DNA of 64,000 nt, taken from NCBI RefSeq assembly GCF_058153355.1, contig NZ_CM177019.1. One strand, given 5' to 3'. The notes under the pieces were generated by a model that saw only the letters and a list, made by a program, of their open reading frames with translations, did not search any database and was not told the origin of the DNA. How positions within the stretch are numbered: position 1 is the stretch's first letter; every line of letters begins with the position of its first letter. The position numbers and the translations under genes were made by a program. Positions 19,630 to 59,969 of this stretch are shown here, one piece after another.

Positions 19630-21024
19630 TCAGAAGAAGTATTTAAAGCGAACGCGTGCGCCGTAACGGTCATCAGTATCATCACCGTGTTTTTTATCAC
19701 CGTCGCTATCCAGAATGGAGTAATAAGTACCAAGGTAAATATTAAAGTTCTCCATATCCATCACATTAGCGAACTGATAAGACGCATGAATGGTGTGAAT
19801 GGTGTACGTCCCTTCATCATCAATCCAGCAGTCGTTATCACAAACTACACCGCTGAATTCATCAATCTTATTGTGCGCGTAGATATAACCCAGCTCGAAA
19901 CGTTTCCACAGCGCGTTAATCCCGGCAGTGAAATCTTTTTCATTATTAGCATCTAAATAGGCGGTATTAAGATTAACCACGACGCCATTTTCCGGATCCG
20001 TTTTCAGGCCATTCCAGGTCATGCTCATACCATAGCCGGTACGATCGGACTGATCGACAAAATTACCCTTGCTATCGGTATAACCATAAGCATTATTTAC
20101 TACGTTCGCTTCCATCGCTGCGGAAACGGTGAATTCTTCCGTCGGCGACCAGGCAATTACCGGACGCAGATAAGCAACATTTTTCTGCTGCTTCATATCG
20201 CGTCCATGATAATTACCGTCATTATATAAAGATGTTCCGTCTTCAAGTAACGTGTTTAATTCAAAATACCAGTTATCGAGTTGTTTGCTGACGAGGAAAT
20301 TACCGCCAGCGTTAGAGCGCCCGCGGCCCTCTTTCATCATATAGATATAACCGCTGCCATCGTCATAAAGATCGTTCGCAGTATTACCGGAATGTTCAAC
20401 AAAGGTATCCTGATTCAGCGGGAACATATCGTAGGCTTCAAAACGGCCTACTTTGACCTTCCAGTCGTTTTCTTTGCCAAAGAAGAATACCGCATCATCG
20501 ATATTTACTGAACCGTGCATATCCCCCAGCGGTTGTGCGGAGAACCCGGCGAAATAACCATTATCCAGTTTTCGCATACCATCAAAACCTAACAGAATAC
20601 GACCATTGAGATTCCACTGTTCATTAGTGGGATCGCTATTCACATCAGCGTTGGTCATTGCCAGCAGGCCATGATTACTTTCCGCATCCATATTAAATTC
20701 TACGTCGCCGTAGATTTTTAAATCGCCATAACCTGAAAGCAAAAGATTAGGTGAGGTGGCATTTTTCTTTGCAGATTCCGCCGTTGTCTGTCCATTTACC
20801 GGCGTATTGCCCTGGGCAGCCTTAATTTCGCGGATCTCAGCGGCTTGTTGTGTCTGCAGCTGTTTTACCTGCCCCTCTGCTTTTGCTGCCCGCATTTCTG
20901 CCGCTTCCAGGCGTTCTTCCAGCAATGCCATGCGTTGTTCCAGCGTTAAATGCTGTGTTTTTGCCATTCCGGTACTACATGCCAATAATAAACCGATGGC
21001 TAAAGATAATGTCGATTTTTTCAT
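19630..21024 (-). CDS. outer-membrane carbohydrate-porin-like protein with N-terminal coiled-coil extension (ScrY/BglH-like architecture)
   Basis: 464 aa; signal peptide MKKSTLSLAIGLLLACSTGMA, then a heptad-like region (LEQRMALLEERLEAAEMRAAKAEGQVKQLQTQQAAEIREIKAAQ), then an aromatic-rich barrel-like region ending in C-terminal Phe (..RFKYFF). Confidence 0.7.
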   Translation of the reverse strand: MKKSTLSLAIGLLLACSTGMAKTQHLTLEQRMALLEERLEAAEMRAAKAEGQVKQLQTQQAAEIREIKAAQGNTPVNGQTTAESAKKNATSPNLLLSGYGDLKIYGDVEFNMDAESNHGLLAMTNADVNSDPTNEQWNLNGRILLGFDGMRKLDNGYFAGFSAQPLGDMHGSVNIDDAVFFFGKENDWKVKVGRFEAYDMFPLNQDTFVEHSGNTANDLYDDGSGYIYMMKEGRGRSNAGGNFLVSKQLDNWYFELNTLLEDGTSLYNDGNYHGRDMKQQKNVAYLRPVIAWSPTEEFTVSAAMEANVVNNAYGYTDSKGNFVDQSDRTGYGMSMTWNGLKTDPENGVVVNLNTAYLDANNEKDFTAGINALWKRFELGYIYAHNKIDEFSGVVCDNDCWIDDEGTYTIHTIHASYQFANVMDMENFNIYLGTYYSILDSDGDKKHGDDTDDRYGARVRFKYFF

Positions 21025-21500
21025 TATTTACGTTCCCTGAAATAAAAGATACCCTACGCTTTCCAAAAGGAATACGTATATAGAGAAATATAAGGTGTGC
21101 ACTTTCGAATTTTTAATCCAACTTCAGCAGGCCGATGGATAGTATCCCGCTGCATAATATGAGTAAATCCGCTGATTTCCTGGAACGTGAGGAATATAAC
21201 AATAGTGCCGTTTTTAACTAAATATCGTAAAAAATATTAGATATAATTCACGCTGACTCATAAGCCACAAATATAAATAACCTTGCTGCAAAATATGTGC
21301 GGCAGTTAAACATTCACAACATCATTAAATAATGATTTTTTATTCACTGCATTTATTTTTCCCATCAATATGTGCCTTACACCGCAAAATTTATCCTTCA
21401 CTCTGCCTTATATTGTCACGACTTCACGACATATCCGCGCTCATCACAAAACCGCCCCGCCGTTACAATTAACTATAATATTTTTTCATGGAGTCCAATA

Positions 21501-21947
21501 ATGGCAGCACTTACTGCAAGCTGTATTGACCTGAATATTCAGGGCAATGGCACTTATTCCGTTCTGAAGCAGTTAGCGACAATGGCGTTACAAAACGGTT
21601 TTATCACCGACTCACATCAATTCCTGCAAACCCTGCTGGTGCGCGAAAAAATGCACTCCACCGGTTTTGGTTCTGGTGTCGCCGTGCCGCACGGTAAAAG
21701 CGCCTGTGTTAAACAACCGTTCGTATTATTCGCTCGCAAAGCGCAGGCCATTGACTGGAAAGCCAGCGATGGCGAAGACGTCAATTGCTGGATCTGCCTC
21801 GGCGTGCCGCAAAGTGGCGAAGAGGATCAGGTCAAAATCATCGGCACACTGTGTCGCAAAATTATCCACCAGGATTTTATCAACCAACTGCGACAAGGCG
21901 ACGCCGTCCAGGTGCTTGCTTTGTTAAATCAAACCCTCAGCTCATAA
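21501..21947 (+). CDS. frvA: PTS fructose-like EIIA component
   Basis: 148 aa from internal ATG (MAALTASCIDLNIQG...); EIIA(Fru/Mtl)-type with the conserved His context. Confidence 0.85.
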   Translation: MAALTASCIDLNIQGNGTYSVLKQLATMALQNGFITDSHQFLQTLLVREKMHSTGFGSGVAVPHGKSACVKQPFVLFARKAQAIDWKASDGEDVNCWICLGVPQSGEEDQVKIIGTLCRKIIHQDFINQLRQGDAVQVLALLNQTLSS

Positions 21948-21957
21948 GGAAGTGGCG

Positions 21958-23409
21958 ATGGAGTCATCCTTACGTATTGTCGCGATCACCAACTGCCCCG
22001 CCGGGATCGCTCACACCTACATGGTGGCGGAAGCCCTGGAACAGAAAGCCCGTTCTCTCGGTCATACCATTAAAGTTGAAACTCAAGGATCAAGCGGCGT
22101 CGAAAACCGCTTATCCAGCGAAGAGATTGCCGCTGCCGATTACGTGATTCTCGCTACCGGGCGTGGCCTGAGCGGTGATGATCGCGCGCGATTTGCCGGG
22201 AAAAAGGTTTATGAGATTGCCATCTCCCAGGCGCTGAAAAATATCGACCAGATTTTCAGTGAATTACCGACAAACTCACAACTTTTTGCCGCAGATAGCG
22301 GCGTGAAGCTCGGCAAACAGGAAGTGCAAAGTGGCAGCGTAATGAGCCATCTGATGGCGGGCGTCTCTGCGGCGCTGCCGTTTGTCATCGGTGGCGGTAT
22401 CCTGGTGGCGCTTGCCAACATGCTGGTGCAGTTCGGTTTGCCGTATACCGATATGTCGAAAGGTGCGCCGTCGTTTACCTGGGTGGTTGAATCCATCGGT
22501 TATCTCGGTTTCACCTTTATGATCCCCATCATGGGCGCTTATATTGCCTCGTCGATTGCCGATAAACCCGCTTTCGCTCCGGCGTTTCTGGTTTGTTATC
22601 TGGCGAACGACAAAGCCCTGCTCGGCACCCAGTCTGGCGCGGGCTTCCTCGGTGCGGTGGTGCTTGGGCTGGCGATTGGCTATTTCGTCTTCTGGTTCCG
22701 TAAAGTGCGCCTTGGCAAAGCATTACAACCGCTGCTCGGTTCCATGCTGATCCCGTTCGTTACTCTGCTGGTTTTTGGCGTACTGACTTACTACGTTATC
22801 CGACCGGTGATGTCCGACCTCATGGGCGGGTTGCTGCACTTCCTGAACACCATTCCTCCGTCAATGAAGTTTGCGGCGGCGTTTCTGGTTGGTGCGATGC
22901 TGGCATTCGATATGGGCGGCCCCATCAACAAAACCGCCTGGTTCTTCTGCTTCTCTCTGCTGGAAAAACACATTTACGACTGGTACGCCATCGTCGGCGT
23001 TGTCGCGCTAATGCCGCCTGTCGCGGCGGGTCTTGCGACGTTCATTGCGCCCAAACTGTTTACTCAACAGGAAAAAGAAGCCGCCAGTAGCGCCATAGTG
23101 GTCGGTGCCACAGTCGCAACCGAACCGGCTATTCCTTACGCTCTGGCAGCCCCGTTGCCGATGATTACCGCCAATACGCTGGCGGGCGGTATTACCGGCG
23201 TGCTGGTGATCGCTTTCGGAATCAAACGTCTGGCACCTGGTTTGGGTATCTTTGACCCGCTGATCGGCCTGATGTCGCCGGTAGGTTCGTTTTATCTGGT
23301 GCTGGCGATTGGCCTCGCGCTGAACATTTCATTCATTATCGTCCTGAAAGGATTATGGTTACGCCGCAAAGCCAAAGCTGCGCAACAGGAGCTTGTCCAT
23401 GAACATTGA
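21958..23409 (+). CDS. frvB: PTS fructose-like EIIBC component
   Basis: 483 aa from ATG 21958 (SD aagga upstream); N-terminal EIIB Cys motif (ITNCPAGIAHTYM) then polytopic EIIC. Confidence 0.88.
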   Translation: MESSLRIVAITNCPAGIAHTYMVAEALEQKARSLGHTIKVETQGSSGVENRLSSEEIAAADYVILATGRGLSGDDRARFAGKKVYEIAISQALKNIDQIFSELPTNSQLFAADSGVKLGKQEVQSGSVMSHLMAGVSAALPFVIGGGILVALANMLVQFGLPYTDMSKGAPSFTWVVESIGYLGFTFMIPIMGAYIASSIADKPAFAPAFLVCYLANDKALLGTQSGAGFLGAVVLGLAIGYFVFWFRKVRLGKALQPLLGSMLIPFVTLLVFGVLTYYVIRPVMSDLMGGLLHFLNTIPPSMKFAAAFLVGAMLAFDMGGPINKTAWFFCFSLLEKHIYDWYAIVGVVALMPPVAAGLATFIAPKLFTQQEKEAASSAIVVGATVATEPAIPYALAAPLPMITANTLAGGITGVLVIAFGIKRLAPGLGIFDPLIGLMSPVGSFYLVLAIGLALNISFIIVLKGLWLRRKAKAAQQELVHEH

Positions 23410-24469
23410 GTTACTGCAACAGTTGTGCGAAGCCAGCGCCGTCAGCGGCGATGAACAGGAAGTTCGCGACATTCTGATGAACACGCTGGAACCCTGCGTG
23501 AATGAGATCACCTTCGATGGTCTGGGCAGCTTTGTTGCCCGTAAGGGGAATAAAGGGCCGAAAGTTGCCGTTGTCGGGCATATGGATGAAGTCGGCTTTA
23601 TGGTCACCCACATCGACGAGAGCGGTTTTCTGCGTTTTACCACCATTGGCGGCTGGTGGAATCAGTCGATGCTCAACCACCGGGTAACCATACGCACACA
23701 CAAGGGAGTGAAAATCCCTGGTGTAATTGGCTCCGTCGCGCCACATGCGTTAACCGAAAAGCAAAAGCAACAACCGCTGTCATTTGATGAGATGTTCATT
23801 GATATTGGCGCGAACAGTCGCGAAGAAGCGGAAAAACGTGGCGTGGAAATTGGCGATTTTATTAGCCCGGAAGCCAATTTTGCCTGCTGGGGCGAAGATA
23901 AAGTGGTCGGCAAGGCGTTGGATAACCGCATCGGCTGCGCAATGATGGCTGAACTATTGCAGACGGTGAATAACCCCGAAATTACGCTTTATGGCGTTGG
24001 CAGTGTGGAAGAAGAAGTTGGGCTACGCGGGGCACAAACCTCGGCTGAACACATTAAACCGGATGTGGTGATCGTGCTGGATACCGCCGTCGCGGGCGAT
24101 GTTCCGGGCATTGATAACATTAAATACCCGCTGAAACTGAGCAACGGGCCGGGGCTGATGTTGTTTGACAAGCGCTACTTCCCCAACCAGAAACTGGTAG
24201 CAGCGTTAAAAAACTGTGCCGTACATAACGATTTACCACTGCAATTTTGCACCATGAAAACCGGAGCGACGGATGGCGGGCGCTACAACGTGATGGGCGG
24301 CGGGCGTCCGGTTGTCGCGCTGTGCCTGCCAACGCGTTATCTGCACGCTAACAGCGGCATGATTTCAAAAGCCGATTACGATGCTCTGCTCACGTTGATA
24401 AGGGATTTTCTGACCACCTTAACCGCGGAGAAAGTCAACGCGTTTAGCCAGTTCCGTCAGGTGGATTAA
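23399..24469 (+). CDS. frvX: M42-family aminopeptidase/endoglucanase-like protein
   Basis: 356 aa; start overlaps the frvB 3' end. Confidence 0.85.
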   Translation: MNIELLQQLCEASAVSGDEQEVRDILMNTLEPCVNEITFDGLGSFVARKGNKGPKVAVVGHMDEVGFMVTHIDESGFLRFTTIGGWWNQSMLNHRVTIRTHKGVKIPGVIGSVAPHALTEKQKQQPLSFDEMFIDIGANSREEAEKRGVEIGDFISPEANFACWGEDKVVGKALDNRIGCAMMAELLQTVNNPEITLYGVGSVEEEVGLRGAQTSAEHIKPDVVIVLDTAVAGDVPGIDNIKYPLKLSNGPGLMLFDKRYFPNQKLVAALKNCAVHNDLPLQFCTMKTGATDGGRYNVMGGGRPVVALCLPTRYLHANSGMISKADYDALLTLIRDFLTTLTAEKVNAFSQFRQVD

Positions 24470-48412: not shown

Positions 48413-48466
48413 GCTGAATCTCCCGTCCAAAAGCGCAAATCATGCCATGCAGGCCGGAAACGGCCA

Positions 48467-48494
48467 TTATCTAAAACCTCGGTTTACAGGAAAC
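48467..48494. repeat. gix recombination site (gin-proximal)
   Basis: ttatctaaaacctcggtttacaggaaac; inverted relative to the copy at 51540..51566. Confidence 0.8.
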
Positions 48495-48537
48495 GGTAAA
48501 CAAGGCTGGTAACGCTGTTCAAAAGACAGGTGATACC

Positions 48538-49503
48538 TTGTCCGGTGGACTTACTTTTGAAAACGACTCAATCCTTGCCTGGATTCGAAATACTGACTGG
48601 GCAAAGATTGGGTTTAAAAATAATTCGGATGCAGACACCGATTCCTACATGTGGTTTGAAACAGGCGACAACGGCAATGAATATTTCAAATGGAGACACC
48701 ACCTCACTGGCGGCCGGGTTAAAGACCTGATGAATCTTAAATGGGATGCTCTGTATGTTCTTGTGAAAGCCCTTTTCAGCAGTGAAGTGAAAATATCGAC
48801 AGTCAATGCACTGAGGATATTTAATTCATCTTTTGGTGCCATTTTTCGTCGTTCTGAAGAATGCCTGCATATCATCCCTACACGAGAGAATGAGGGGGAA
48901 AATGGTGATATAGGGCCACTACGCCCCTTTACGCTTAATCTCAGAACTGGCCGGATAAGCATGGGGCATGGTCTTGATGTTACAGGGGATATATTTGCAA
49001 ACCGTTTTGCAATTAACAGTAGTACCGGCATGTGGATTCATATGCGTGACCAGAATGTTATTCTGGGCCGTAATGCGGTATCCAACGATGGTGCGCAGGC
49101 ATTGCTTCGCCAGGACCATACCGACCGTAAATTCGTAATTGGTGGGCTGGGGAATAAGCAATTTGGCATCTACATGATTAATAACTCAAGGACAGCCAAT
49201 GGCACCGATGGTCAGGCGTACATGGATAATAACGGTAACTGGCTTTGTGGTGCGCAAGTTATTCCCGGCAATTATGGCAATTTTGACTCCAGATATGTGA
49301 AAGATGTCCGGCTTGGCTCACAGCAATATTATGGTGTGAATAACTGGCAAACATGGAATTTCCAGTGCCCGTCAGGCTATGTACTGACGGGGATTAACGT
49401 ACAGGATACCGGAAAAAACTCTGCCGATAATATTGCAGGCGTTCATTACAGGCCAGTGCAAAAGTATATAAATGGCACCTGGTATAATGTGGCGAGTATT
49501 TAA
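48538..49503 (+). CDS. alternative tail-fibre variable segment (Sv'), silent in this orientation
   Basis: C-terminus (..[19 protein letters not shown]) parallels that of S; lies inside the invertible segment on the opposite strand. True 5' boundary is the gix site. Confidence 0.7.
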
Positions 49504-49504
49504 T

Positions 49505-50032
49505 ATGATGCACTTAAAGAACATAAAAGCGGGTAATGCTAAAACACCAGAACAGTATGAGTTAACAAAGAAACACGGAGTTATCTGGCTTTACTCTGAG
49601 GACGGAAAAAACTGGTATGAGGAAGTGAAGAACTTTCAGCCGGATACAATAAAGATTGTTTACGACGAAAATAATATTATTGTCGCCGTCACTAAAGATG
49701 CCTCCACGCTTAATCCTGAAGGTTTTAGCGTCGTTGAAATCCCCGATATAACAGCTAACCGTCGTGCCGATGATTCAGGGAAGTGGATGTTTAAGGACGG
49801 AGCGGTGGTCAGGAGGACTTATACAGCAGACGAACAGCAGCAACAGGCCGAATCACAAAAGGCCGAGTTACTTTCCGAAGCTGAATCAGTCATCCAGCCG
49901 CTGGAACGCGCTGTCAGGCTGAATATGGCAACAGACGAGGAACGCACACGACTGGAAGCATGGGAACGCTACAGTGTTCTGATCAGCCGTGTGGATACGG
50001 CAAAGCCCGAATGGCCACAAAAACCTGAGTAA
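49505..50032 (+). CDS. alternative tail-fibre assembly protein U'
   Basis: About 175 aa, paralogous to U (both begin MMHLKNI.AGN...[19 protein letters not shown]). Confidence 0.75.
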
Positions 50033-50060
50033 AAATTAAGGCCCGATATCGGGCCTTCTC

Positions 50061-50594
50061 TCATTCTGGTTGTTCGGGAAACGTTACTGGCAGGCTGGAG
50101 GTGTCTGTGGATTCGACCTTCTGCGCATAGAGCATCCACTCGGTTAATTTTTGTTTATTCTCGTCGGAAATAATGCCCAGCCGTAGCTGTGAGTCCCACA
50201 GCTGGGTTTTATCCCTGACGAGCTGTAGCAGGCTTTGCTTTTCATTTTCCGCTTGTTGCCTCTGCTCTTCCCCGGTATAAGTTCGCTTTATCACTACGCC
50301 ATCTTTGAACATCCATTTACCTGAAATATCAGCCCGGCGATTTGCTGTAATATCAGGAACCTCAACGACGCTTGCGCCTTCCGGATTAATTGCTGAAACA
50401 TCCTTTTCAATACAAATAATAACGCCGTTGTGGTCATAGACCATTTTCAACGTATCAGGCTGAAAGTTCTTTTGTTCCTCATACCAGTTTTTCCCATCCT
50501 CTGTATAAAGCCATTTGATGTTAAATTGCTTTGTTAGCTGGTATTGCTCTTTTGTTTCAGGATTACCAGCAGAAATGTTTTTTAAGTGCATCAT
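50061..50594 (-). CDS. U: tail-fibre assembly protein U
   Basis: 177 aa directly after S on the same strand. Confidence 0.78.
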   Translation of the reverse strand: MMHLKNISAGNPETKEQYQLTKQFNIKWLYTEDGKNWYEEQKNFQPDTLKMVYDHNGVIICIEKDVSAINPEGASVVEVPDITANRRADISGKWMFKDGVVIKRTYTGEEQRQQAENEKQSLLQLVRDKTQLWDSQLRLGIISDENKQKLTEWMLYAQKVESTDTSSLPVTFPEQPE

Positions 50595-50596
50595 CG

Positions 50597-52063
50597 TTAA
50601 ATACTCCCCGCGTTATACCACGTCCCATTAATGCAATACTGAACTGGCCTTGCCTGAGTTGTATCAATTAGTTCATCTCTGTTTGAGTTAACGGAACCGG
50701 TAACAACATAACCTGACCTGTCAGACCAGCCGGGACCATTCCATGTCTGAACAGATGACAGACCACCAAGGCGAATACCTGTAATAAACCTTGAGTTACA
50801 TTCTGCCTGCGTATATGCGCCAACATCTCTCGCTGATGGCTTGCGTGTTGTGGTGTAAAACTCTGACCAGCCAGCCTCAAATCCATAACCATCACGCGCT
50901 GAACGATAAAAAATACCGCCGTTCCTGTAATTCACACGGAACTGTACGGCAGGGCAACTCCCCGTATTCATATTGAAGTGGAGGATTAATGTTGTTGCGC
51001 CACCAATATTTGCGTTATAGACCCCGCTATTCCAGTTCCAGCCAACGGCTTTGTCGTTTCCGACGGTATTTCCTGTTTGCCCTAAAGCAAATGCAGGCTG
51101 CTGGTTTTTCGTGTTGTAGTCTCGTCGCCAGCCAGGAGCGTAAGCATCACCATGATTAATATAAGTGAATTGAGCGTTAGTGATTCCGCCGCCGCTGGAC
51201 GTGCCCGGCGTGGTAACGCGTATGGTCATTGCGCCGCGGGTGCCAATAACTTCCACCACAGCACCTGCAAGACAAATATTTCCGCAACCTGTATCTGTAA
51301 TGACCTTATTATTTGCATAAGCCCATGAGCCTTTGCACATCCAGTAAGGATGGTTAAATGCTCCCTGACTCTCCAGCCACGAAATAAATTGCGCAGTTGT
51401 CCAGACCTGACTATCGCCACCAATATCCACCCATGCGCTATATGCGCGACAGGCACCAATATTTTTGGTGAAGGTATCTTTTCCTGGAATATCTGCGCCG
51501 TTCTGGTTTTTCTGTAATGCGCCAGAAGCCTGATTTACCGTTTCCTGCAAACCGAGGTTTTGGATAAACAGCGGCTTATTGGGAATATCTGCTCCGTTCC
51601 GGTCTTTTGCCAGACGGGCATTGGCATTATCCATCGCAATTTTCACCGCTTTTGCGGTGGCTGCCAGCGTTTCACTGGGGCTGTCAGTGGCACTGGTTAG
51701 CTGAACGAGTCCTTTTTTGTTCAGGCTGGCATCATAGATATCCAGATTTTCACGTGCTGTACGCTGTGCTGATGCCCCGGCAGTTTTAATTTCGCTGAGG
51801 TTATTTTTTATCAGCAGCGCGTTCTTGTTCATGATGGCTTTAATGGACAGTGCAAGCTGGTTTAATTTTGTTTTATCCGGTTGAATACCGGCTTCTTCCA
51901 GCGTGTTTAATAACTCCGCCTGCACAATATTAAACCAGTCCATGCCGGGCCATGTGATAACATTATTCCCGTCACCTTCTGAAAACCAGCGAACGATAGC
52001 ACTACGCTTGGCGGATACGGGCGGCATGACGGTTACGCCGCTGTCGTTATCAATATAAAACAT
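50597..52063 (-). CDS. S: tail fibre protein S (constant part outside, variable part inside the G segment)
   Basis: 488 aa; the ORF crosses the gix site at about 51540..51566, so the G segment is in the S-U expressing orientation. Confidence 0.78.
   Translation of the reverse strand: MFYIDNDSGVTVMPPVSAKRSAIVRWFSEGDGNNVITWPGMDWFNIVQAELLNTLEEAGIQPDKTKLNQLALSIKAIMNKNALLIKNNLSEIKTAGASAQRTARENLDIYDASLNKKGLVQLTSATDSPSETLAATAKAVKIAMDNANARLAKDRNGADIPNKPLFIQNLGLQETVNQASGALQKNQNGADIPGKDTFTKNIGACRAYSAWVDIGGDSQVWTTAQFISWLESQGAFNHPYWMCKGSWAYANNKVITDTGCGNICLAGAVVEVIGTRGAMTIRVTTPGTSSGGGITNAQFTYINHGDAYAPGWRRDYNTKNQQPAFALGQTGNTVGNDKAVGWNWNSGVYNANIGGATTLILHFNMNTGSCPAVQFRVNYRNGGIFYRSARDGYGFEAGWSEFYTTTRKPSARDVGAYTQAECNSRFITGIRLGGLSSVQTWNGPGWSDRSGYVVTGSVNSNRDELIDTTQARPVQYCINGTWYNAGSI
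51540..51566. repeat. gix recombination site (distal), inside the S gene
   Basis: gttcctgcaaaccgaggttttggataa, inverted copy of 48467..48494 with a few mismatches. Confidence 0.8.
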
Positions 52064-57317: not shown

Positions 57318-59483
57318 TTACCAGCCCGTAATGTAGTTATCGCCCGCGTAAATATTCAGCCCCATACCATCCCCGGTGACGCGGGAACTGGTCAGACGTA
57401 ACCCCTCGCCAAGTTCGACGCGCAGCGAGGCTTCCGCATTGACTTTTTGTTCCTGCGGTTCCTTATCCGTGGCCGTCCATTTCTGATACAGGTCGGTTAC
57501 AAAACCGCCCAGATACTCCCCGGCGACACTGCCCAGCGTGGCACCGGCAACCGTACCCAGCGGTCCGGCAAGGCTGCCAACGGCACCGCCGAGCCATGCA
57601 CCGGCTGTACTGCCAATTGCTCCTGCTTTTTCATGGGCTGACGCCTGCTCATCCATCAGGACGGGGGCAAGCTGGAGTGCCCCCATTACCGGGCCACCCA
57701 GACGTGACAACGCACGACAGGCACCTTTGCCCATCCAGCCCAGCGCCCCGGCACCTTTTGCCACAACCCGACCGATCGCACTGCCTGCAAGTTTGTTTCC
57801 GATACCGGAAAACCACCCGCCAGCGGCACGCCCGGCATCAGCCAGCTTTCCGACCGTTCCCGTAACCAGTTGCCCGGCAGCACTGCCTGCAAGTCTGCTC
57901 AGAAGACCGGATTTACCGGGTAAAGGTAATGGTGCAGGCCGTGCTGTTACCGGTACGCCGGGTGGGGGTAATGCCAGTACAGGGCGTGGTGCAGGTAATG
58001 CCAGCGGCTGTGGCCCGGACAGCAATAACGGCTGGCGGGGTAACAGCGGGGCCATTCTTCCGCCGCTCCGTCCGCGACGACCGCCGCCACTCCCGTAGCC
58101 ACCAAATCCACGGGGCCAGTTGATGACAAACACACGCTGAATGCCGGTGCCCTGCAACAGCGTCTCAGACGTCATGGCATCCGGCACCGGCAGACCTGCC
58201 CGCCCACGTTTGCGGTTCCGCATCCAGCGCCACATACGACGCCCGGTTTTAAACGGATAACTGGCAACCTGCCATGAGGGTTTTGCCACGGCCCAGCCTG
58301 CTCTCAGGGCTTTATTGGCAAGCCAGACAGACACCAGAACAGCAGCCAGTTTTTTCAGGCTGACAATATTCTGGTCAACCCATGCCAGCGCATCTTTACC
58401 CGGTTTCAGCCAGCGCCATAATTCCTGCGCCGCGATTTTCACCGTTCTGAATGTGGTCAGAAACTTCTGACCAATGTTTTGCGCCAGTGCGTCAAGTTCC
58501 CCGGATTTATCCGCCATGTCGTGCCAGTCAAGCACCCGGCGCATCTCGTTCTTGATTTCTTCAAAGGGGCCGCTGTTGGCCACCTTTGTGCGAAACTCAA
58601 GCAGGTTGCCCTCCATCTGGGCCATCATCCCGTCCCAGGAGTTCATGGCAGCCGCCTGTGCGCCTTTTGACTGTTCCAGTAAGATTCTGAACACCGTCAG
58701 GATGGATTTCAGGCCCAGCTTGCCCTTTGTACCCAGATCACGGATTTTTTTCTCATCCTCACCCGTTGCATCTGCCAGCACCTTGTAGACGTTGATACCG
58801 TAGCCGGTCAGCAGGTTGGCGTCCGCCGCTGTGATTTGCTGACGGGCAAACATCTGTTTGAACTGTAACGAAGCCCCCTGTGCAGTGGGTAAATCCCAGC
58901 CGTGCATCGCCCCCTGGTTCTGTAGCATGGTGATGAACTGTTTTACCTGGGCATCAGTCATGCCAAACGCAGTTGATGTGCGGATCTCCTGCAGAACACC
59001 ACCCAGCCCCCAGGTGGTTTCTTTTGCGTTCTGCTTCGCCCACGCCATCATGGCCTGTGCTCTGGCCTTATCGCCGTGATAGAGCGAGTTCATGGCGATA
59101 ATCTGCTGCTCACGCTGGGCGGCTGCACCAATAAACAGTTTATTGGCGGTGTAACCCACGCCAGCGATACCCAGCGCCCCGGCTGACAGCATTCGGAATG
59201 TACGGGTTGACAGAGAACCCATTCTGTCAATGGCACCAGAAACGCGCACAACCTCCATACGCAGGGCACGCAGGGAACTTTGTCCGCTACGGGACAGGGC
59301 GTTTATCTGGTTCGAATACTGGCGGGAACGCCGGGAAAGATTGCCATTAAGATCAATAATGACAGACGCTTTTAAGCGTTTCCCGGTCACAGAAATCTCC
59401 TGATTTAACGGTGATATTGAGAGAGGGTTTTCGCCTGCTGGCAGTGCCGGAAAAAGCGGGACAGCGGGAGGGACAAGGCCCAT
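57318..59483 (-). CDS. tail tape-measure protein
   Basis: 721 aa, largest tail-module ORF, with an internal Gly/Pro/Arg-rich low-complexity stretch. Confidence 0.7.
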
Positions 59484-59534
59484 TCCGGGCCACTTTTCAG
59501 AATAACGCCAATCGCTGTCGCCGCTTTCTCAATA

Positions 59535-59969
59535 TCATTCCGGCACCGCAGCCACTCGCCCCCGTTCTTGCGTCAGCGATGCTGCCACGGCCATGTCGTA
59601 CATTTCTGTGGCCAGCGACAGACGCTGGAAGTCATCGACGGACAGTTTACGCATCAGCGCCATCGACAACGGGCCTTTGATGCAGCCCACGCTGGCAATC
59701 TGTCGGCGCAGCATTTCCAGCCCCATCAGGGACGGGGAACTGACCAGCACCGGACCTTCCTTGCTCATTACCAGCTTTTCAGCAGCCACCTGGGCATCAA
59801 TCAGATCGCCTGCGGTCAGTTCACGCAGCGTCACGTCATACTGCATTTCAGTCTCGTCGCCGGTGCCGAACGGCAGGCCGTCTTTCAGTTTCAGCACGCC
59901 GGACTGAAGCTCTGCCACAATGCTGTCATGCAGTTCCTGTGCTTCCTCACTTAAATTCATTTCGTCCAT
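59535..59969 (-). CDS. tail assembly chaperone-like protein
   Basis: 144-aa acidic ORF between tube and tape-measure genes. Confidence 0.5.
   Translation of the reverse strand: MDEMNLSEEAQELHDSIVAELQSGVLKLKDGLPFGTGDETEMQYDVTLRELTAGDLIDAQVAAEKLVMSKEGPVLVSSPSLMGLEMLRRQIASVGCIKGPLSMALMRKLSVDDFQRLSLATEMYDMAVAASLTQERGRVAAVPE

Follow-up and report, generated by a model that had tools for sequence, protein, structure and literature searches.

Do short DNA repeats within the tape-measure gene of a Mu-like phage slip and thereby change the length of the tail, or do they reflect the composition of the protein that they encode? The question was raised by a first-pass annotation of the 64,000-nt stretch of DNA analyzed here (the window), which described short imperfect repeats encoding a Gly/Pro/Arg-rich segment at positions 57880-58110, proposed that they can expand or contract by slippage, and held that they create a long spurious open reading frame on the plus strand. 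Our analysis indicates that the segment is very probably an ordinary low-complexity linker, Gly/Arg-rich and then Pro-rich, of the known protein gp42, that the window carries its canonical allele, and that rare in-frame indels accumulate at this place.

The chromosome around the prophage is that of Escherichia coli, with a 99.4% match in the frv operon region. BLAST located the right end of Mu at window position 46787, and therefore the window holds the right-hand 17 kb of the prophage, which continues past position 64000. A search with a presumed Mu end sequence gave no match. The flagged segment is covered by a minus-strand open reading frame whose longest form spans 57318-59483 (721 codons). 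This form overshoots the gene by 93 nt upstream, because GAA here replaces the in-frame TAA that precedes the gene in Mu. The homologous start is the GTG at 59390, preceded by AGGAG and the counterpart of the annotated ATG of Mu_42, and hence the gene encodes 690 aa (Table 1). Its product matches the Pfam profile TMP_3 (PF20155; 52.4 bits for a cut-off of 41) and PHROG 973, 'tail length tape measure protein' (1e-224), and it aligns from residue 1 to 690 with residues 1-690 of PDB 9ki1 chain g ('Probable tape measure protein', 690 aa; E=0). At the nucleotide level, the gene aligns ungapped over its full length with those of SfMu (98.2% identity), PhiR68_1 (97.4%), Mu (94.9%), and D108 (94.4%), and with those of several Yersinia Mu-like phages (94-95%). 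The genes for sheath, tube, gp41, tape measure, N, and P follow each other on the minus strand in the order known from Mu. The initial assignment to the tape-measure gene of a Mu-like phage is thus upheld by TMP_3, PHROG 973, 9ki1 chain g, and synteny: an E. coli Mu-like prophage carries here a tape-measure gene of the Mu gp42 type. Mu gp42 itself (AAF01120; PDB 9ki1 chain g) has the same 690 aa, the same neighbors, and 95% nucleotide identity, and two substitutions set it apart in the flagged segment (G431D and G439V in Mu).

Table 1. Position in the window of the tape-measure gene, its tail gene neighbors, and the features in and around the flagged segment.
Feature	Position	Strand	Remarks
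Sheath, 495 aa	60345-61832	-	Tail gene neighbor
Tube, 118 aa	59979-60335	-	Tail gene neighbor
gp41 chaperone (frameshifting tail-assembly chaperone), 144 aa	59535-59969	-	Tail gene neighbor
Tape-measure protein (Mu gp42 homologue), 690 aa	57318-59390	-	Start GTG 59390, stop codon 57318-57320
Long predicted helix (residues 344-376), hydrophobic stretch, then basic stretch	58263-58361	-	AlphaFold2 helix 344-376, low pLDDT
Conserved motif VFVINWP (residues 420-426)	58113-58133	-	Directly upstream of the flagged segment
Gly/Arg-rich patch (residues 428-445)	58056-58109	-	From the translation
Pro-rich tract (residues 447-491), LALPxP units	57918-58052	-	Holds most of the 16 Pro of residues 427-504
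Direct repeat pair D7, 17 nt, 27-nt spacing	57961-57977 and 57988-58004		Includes both exact GGTAATGCCAG copies
Direct repeat pair D6, 19 nt, 57-nt spacing	57920-57938 and 57977-57995		Encodes PAP(R/L)P
Direct repeat pair D1, 32 nt, 78% identical, 102-nt spacing	57778-57809 and 57880-57911		Encodes (R/K)LAGSA
Counterpart of the 186-nt (62-aa) module, single copy here (residues 484-533)	57792-57941	-	Module present 2-3 times in some relatives
Antisense open reading frame, 186 aa, GTG start	57538-58098	+	From the list of open reading frames
Gly-zipper-like helices (residues 585-639)	57474-57638	-	Downstream of the linker; AlphaFold2 helices 585-608 and 610-639; conserved in homologues
C-terminal 17 residues (674-690)	57321-57371	-	Homology to Mu gp42 (9ki1 chain g)
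N, 495 aa	55826-57313	-	Baseplate hub side, directly after the tape-measure gene
P, 379 aa	54694-55833	-	Baseplate hub side, after N

The 231 nt of the flagged segment encode residues 427-504 of gp42, which hold 16 of the 28 Pro of the protein together with 15 Gly and 9 Arg. This composition agrees with the low-complexity stretch described initially, and both peptide strings quoted for it are present exactly in the translation of the minus-strand frame. An AlphaFold2 monomer model was computed from 30 homologues. As its mean pLDDT is 47, with confident prediction only at residues ~85-280, we used it for secondary structure alone. It gives helices at residues 18-414, no regular structure at 415-513, helices at 514-639, and strands at 657-677. 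In this model, where pLDDT in the linker is ~26-35, the flagged segment is predicted at low confidence to be the core of the sole long non-helical stretch of the protein. In the Mu virion, gp42 is a trimer that fills the lumen of the tube, which is strongly negative, and the sole modelled part comprises residues 674-690, which contact the hub gp44 and the spike gp45, residues 1-673 being unresolved in the cryo-EM map (PMC11915804). The linker would connect two parts of the tape: the long helical one at the N-terminus, and the one at the C-terminus that consists of the Gly-zipper helices and the tail that binds the hub.

Homologues down to ~23% identity share this organization. Their order is a hydrophobic helix, in which LAKxLxxxYxANKALR is conserved, a basic stretch, V(F/Y)VxNWP (kept in the form V(F/Y)V(T/V)N(W/M)P), and a patch that is first Gly-rich and then Lys/Arg-rich. 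After this patch comes a P/K/A-rich spacer, variable in both length and sequence, followed by the conserved Gly-zipper-like helices. The position of the Gly-rich and Lys/Arg-rich stretch is shared by these distant homologues, but its sequence is not conserved.

How repetitive is the DNA? The 11-mer GGTAATGCCAG is present in two exact copies, at 57967-57977 and 57994-58004, which are 27 nt apart and are the only exact ones in the 64-kb window; a single degenerate copy, GGTAATGG, is found at 57926. Shuffling reaches an exact repeat of 11 nt in the region in 1.25% of the cases when bases are permuted and in 2.1% when the order of codons is. Tandem Repeats Finder (TRF), run on the gene, returned no tandem array in 57880-58110, and instead of at least three head-to-tail near-identical short units we found only imperfect pairs there. 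A direct-repeat search revealed three such pairs, nested in each other: 17 nt at a spacing of 27 nt (D7), 19 nt at 57 nt (D6), and 32 nt at 102 nt (D1). Each has two copies, 78-88% identical beyond cores of 11-15 nt. As there is no TRF array, the label 'tandem repeat' was dropped for 'nested repeat pairs'. Read on the coding strand, the pairs correspond to three repeated peptides, LALP(A/P)P, PAP(R/L)P, and (R/K)LAGSA, and the short DNA repeats are the nucleotide imprint of peptide repeats of the LALPxP type. They cover only the Pro-rich half of the segment; the Gly/Arg-rich half is of low complexity but is not made of such units. In other words, the GGTAATGCCAG-type units reported by the first-pass annotation hold as two exact copies and a degenerate one, and do not hold as an array or for the segment as a whole. 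The DNA repeats are real but slight. A scan for promoters and terminators gave no enrichment, and the flagged region and its surroundings contained no promoter-like site; we therefore rejected a regulatory reading.

Comparison of the tape-measure length with that of relatives, the check proposed initially, showed that lengths differ exactly in this segment. Beside the 690-aa form there are alleles of 671, 703, 750, 752, 766, and 814 aa, and repeat number is thus not identical in all relatives. Among full-length phage records, 13/13 have the length of the window allele, and this canonical length persists across Mu, D108, SfMu, and Yersinia phages despite a nucleotide divergence of 2-6%. The gene was found in 43 complete E. 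coli genomes; in 36 its length is again the canonical one, and two carry frameshifted pseudogenes with indels outside the segment; our tally of 38/43 canonical genomes counts these two. Net gains of 372 nt were found in 2/43 (S6, CP107134, and 1290, CP184007; 814 aa) and of 39 nt in 3/43 (SE11, PEC422, and TUM9757, 703 aa). A first protein search gave only near-identical proteins of 690 aa, and the variants surfaced when the S6 allele was used as the query, which revealed alleles of 671, 750, 752, and 766 aa beside those of 690 and 814. The canonical length was found in 217 of the 240 protein clusters retrieved, a frequency that is rough because the choice of queries biased the lists of proteins. 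The flanking tail genes are unchanged in length at the variant loci. Substitutions show a different picture from indels in part: among 217 distinct proteins of 690 aa, mean pi is 0.010 in the segment vs 0.025 elsewhere, and since it is not raised, diversifying selection on the segment was rejected; rare polymorphic sites are denser in the segment than in the rest of the protein among these alleles.

The in-frame length differences all lie between residue ~437 and the LAGSAA motif at ~500, and the Pro-rich tract is the site of indels of +17, +14, and -19 aa. The 703-aa allele has four LALPxP-type units vs two (+17 aa), and its Gly/Arg patch lacks 4 aa; D7 encodes LALPAPRPV-type units, of which PEC422-type alleles carry four. 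In the 671-aa allele (P0144/L007), 19 aa are missing between two PAPRP motifs, a deletion that equals exactly the 57-nt spacing of D6. The longer alleles carry additional copies of the 62-aa module, AGSAAAQQVTGAAGTLA.AGRTVSRLLSGAGNRQ.APSPVVPVTPRPAPRPLPAKSGLPGRL, the 17-residue core of which starts at D1. The module is present once in the window and in Mu, twice in the alleles of 750, 752, and 766 aa, and three times in the 814-aa allele (S6, 1290). The alleles of 750, 752, and 766 aa have one extra module each, and that of 766 aa gains a further 14 Pro-rich residues. Hence, the segment is the indel hot spot of the gene family.

Some of these events are recent. In a sister lineage, ~92% identical to the window protein, the alleles of P0122/P0125 (752 aa), P0142 (690 aa), and P0144 (671 aa) are identical over 423 N-terminal and 164 C-terminal residues, and blocks of 62 and 19 aa are all that distinguishes them; the form of 814 aa departs from these alleles at 7 positions. 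Since the alleles of 671, 690, and 752 aa are identical outside the segment, the indel events appear to be recent and recurrent in this lineage. The copy number of the 57-nt and 186-nt units thus differs between identical flanks, rarely and in part in draft assemblies. The alleles of 671, 750, 752, and 766 aa come from draft or automated assemblies, in which repeats may be collapsed or mis-assembled, and complete genomes show only the variants of 814 and 703 aa. For the ~27-nt units, no difference in copy number was seen within the Mu clade. Their number differs, as 2 vs 4, between lineages that are only ~85% identical, and since the extra units of the SE11-type alleles are themselves diverged, this difference is old. 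The proposal that the GGTAATGCCAG repeats slip is not borne out by this pattern, and we rejected the 11-mer as the unit of change: recent events use the 57-nt spacing (-19 aa) and the 186-nt/62-aa module.

Rare in-frame deletions and duplications accumulate in the segment, probably because nested imperfect direct repeats occur where changes in length are tolerated. Replication slippage or unequal recombination between the direct repeats, at spacings of 27, 57, and 102 nt, is the likely source of the indels, which we infer from the equality of repeat spacing and indel size. The tape measure of the lactococcal phage TP901-1 is comparable in that an internally repetitive part is the site of length change; deletions in it are tolerated and shorten tails in proportion, and its repeats have been put forward as natural aids to duplication and deletion (PMC5099701). 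The repeats of TP901-1 are helical, 11 and 18 residues long, and marked by Trp/Phe (PMC5099701), whereas those of gp42 are Pro-rich, spaced by 9, 19, and 62 aa, lack periodic aromatics, and are predicted to be non-helical. No Trp/Phe periodicity of 11 or 18 residues was observed in residues 427-504, the only aromatics noted being F429 and Y432.

What would these alleles do to the tail? In Mu, 30 rings make up the tail tube, each adding ~35 Å (PMC11915804). For Mu itself the fit is good: 690 aa at 1.5 Å give 103.5 nm, vs 105 nm for 30 rings of ~35 Å, i.e., about 23 residues per ring. Under a ruler model the length alleles should change the length of the tail. At 23 aa per ring, the predicted changes are -2.9 nm (-0.8 rings) for the 671-aa allele, +2.0 nm (+0.6 rings) for 703 aa, +9.1 nm (+2.6 rings) for 750 aa, +9.4 nm (+2.7 rings) for 752 aa, +11.6 nm (+3.3 rings) for 766 aa, and +18.9 nm (+5.4 rings) for 814 aa. 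The changes would be larger if the Pro-rich parts were extended rather than helical. In other phages, tape length reportedly sets tail length, and in-frame deletions and duplications are said to change tails accordingly, as described for lambda gpH by Katsura and Hendrix in 1984 and for T4 gp29 by Abuladze et al. in 1994. The evidence in lambda and T4 is experimental, whereas the Mu-type alleles are documented as sequences. The relatives may form a natural series of alleles, from 671 to 814 aa, made by gain and loss of 62-aa modules and Pro-rich units in the linker, some of them identical elsewhere, which would imply recent steps in tail length. We take this idea seriously while leaning slightly against it. 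If true, how thick the envelope or capsule of the host is could exert selection on such changes in tail length.

The extra modules might have been acquired from a diverged Mu-like phage by recombination rather than duplicated in situ. At the protein level, the added module (AAAQQVTGAAGTLA..) has clearly diverged from the resident core, which suggests either an old duplication or a foreign origin of the first extra copy. However, the gain of a third copy in S6, on top of two, involves added 186-nt units that are 97.8% identical to each other in nucleotides, indicating tandem duplication in situ, and the alleles of 690 and 752 aa have identical flanks. Hence, we consider import unlikely as the origin of the extra modules, though it deserves some weight.

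Another reading concerns what the Pro-rich tract might do after ejection. It could act as a rigid, extended spacer that bridges the periplasm between the tip of the tube and a Gly-zipper channel in the inner membrane, with the length alleles tuning its reach and not the length of the tail. The tape-measure protein of Mu is ejected upon contraction (PMC11915804). The tract lies between the hydrophobic helix with its basic stretch and the Gly-zipper-like helices, and a spacer of variable length and composition occupies the same position in distant homologues. However, the match to the Pfam profile Gly-zipper_Omp lies below the cut-off (18.2 bits vs 25). TonB has a Pro-rich, extended, and length-tolerant spacer between the membrane-associated parts of an envelope-spanning protein. 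The two proteins are not homologous, the analogy is one of function, and the role in gp42 is hypothetical. We judge such a role rather improbable, a little more so than import. It would be compatible with the low-complexity linker that we favor.

Could the segment be a contingency locus, hypermutable by high-frequency slippage, so that a lysate would be mixed in tape-measure and tail lengths? Nested direct repeats are indeed present, and one lineage has length alleles that are otherwise identical in protein sequence. Yet the repeats have two copies each, which are imperfect outside their short cores, they form no TRF array, and the ~27-nt units that differ in number are diverged, which makes these events old. 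Moreover, the canonical length is kept in most genomes (38/43 complete E. coli genomes, 13/13 phage records, and 217/240 clusters) and across Mu, D108, SfMu, and the Yersinia phages despite their nucleotide divergence. With so few copies, all of them imperfect, and a canonical length that prevails in most genomes, the locus does not appear to slip rapidly; we saw no sign of frequent slippage, and the contingency reading is very improbable.

The last point is the plus-strand open reading frame at 57538-58098. Its third codon positions are the wobble positions of the sense frame, and a stop in the antisense frame requires a sense Tyr, or Gln/His after a codon ending in T. Sense codons 431-432 (GGC TAC, Tyr432) give rise to the stop downstream of the frame, and codons 635-636 to the closest in-frame stop upstream of it (57484-57486). 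Because the two frames share wobble positions, dN/dS is unable to separate them, and we used synonymous-codon resampling: when the protein was kept the same, the antisense strand was open over 203 codons or more in 42.5% of the trials. The antisense product has no match in Pfam or PHROG. A real overlapping gene is scarcely credible here, in spite of the 186 codons, the GTG start, and an open stretch kept in all seven relatives examined: this retention follows from a sense protein without Tyr and without T-ending codons before Gln/His, the stretch lengthens and shortens along with in-frame sense indels, the product is a mirror-image low-complexity P/A/G/R sequence, the scan shows no sigma-70-type promoter-like site for it, and it is the sense product that cryo-EM locates in Mu virions. 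The antisense frame is a non-coding, compositional by-product of the sense protein, spurious as had been supposed from the start, and it should stay unannotated.

The feature in the window is therefore already known and ordinary: a standard linker of standard length in a well-known phage gene. Our literature search returned nothing specific to Mu on proline-rich tape-measure segments or on tandem duplications in tape measures. A side result of modest value is that the analysis locates where tape-measure proteins of the Mu type tolerate and accumulate changes in length. It also points to sequenced strains with non-canonical alleles, namely S6 and 1290 (814 aa) and SE11, PEC422, and TUM9757 (703 aa). 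Through counts of sheath rings, such natural, near-isogenic length variants could put the ruler model to the test for a phage with a contractile tail.

The right end of Mu lies at window position 46787, which aligned to bp 36717 of Mu and bp 37146 of SfMu, another Mu-like phage. Sequence to the left of this position belongs to the E. coli chromosome, with the frv operon region at 20000-24000, and the prophage extends beyond the right edge of the window. Hence, only around 17 kb of its approximately 37 kb are present. The alignment at 46787-48500 takes in the genes annotated in Mu and SfMu as Mom, Com, and the DNA invertase (Gin), and reaches into the first part of the tail-fibre (S') segment. 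Open reading frames (ORFs) are found on both strands up to around 50600, which is consistent with the invertible G segment.

Features of the prophage in the window
Feature	Coordinates	Strand	Remark
ORF	48538-49503	+	right-end region 46902-50600
ORF	49472-50032	+	right-end region 46902-50600
ORF	50061-50594	-	right-end region 46902-50600
Basic cluster	58056-58240		gp42 residues ~384-445
VFVINWP motif	58113-58133		gp42 residues 420-426
Upstream ORF extension	59391-59483		93 nt
gp41 region	59405-59969	-	tail assembly chaperone

Across homologues with identities as low as around 23%, VFVINWP ranks among the most strongly conserved short motifs of the C-terminal half of gp42, the tape-measure protein; it directly precedes the Gly/Arg patch. 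The Mu cryo-EM map does not resolve the part of gp42 in which the motif lies. The cluster listed in the table is strongly basic, and the lumen of the Mu tube is reported to be strongly negative (PMC11915804). It is conceivable that the cluster would provide an electrostatic contact between the tape and the tube lumen.

Frameshifted tape-measure pseudogenes were identified in two complete genomes of E. coli, elppa5 (locus L005) and A21 (locus L006). In the alignment, their single-base indels fall close to 57668, 57632, and 57426 of the window, all of them outside the low-complexity segment at 57880-58110, and in A21 the adjoining tail gene N is frameshifted as well. These frameshifts could reflect decaying prophages or sequencing errors.

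Upstream of the tape-measure gene, the gp41 region is 98% identical to that of Mu, whose record annotates for this region a verified product of -2 translational frameshifting (Mu_56) ending immediately before the tape-measure start. A G-rich run, CGGGGGCGAG, located around 20 nt ahead of the gp41 stop, is the same in the window and in Mu and is a candidate slip site. The longest tape-measure ORF begins 93 nt upstream of the position homologous to the start in Mu, and an in-frame codon in this extension is TAA in Mu but GAA in the window. The true start in the window is likely the GTG at 59390, which has AGGAG ahead of it; the start codon in Mu is ATG. Naive calling of the longest ORF gives a tape measure of 721 aa, instead of 690 aa.
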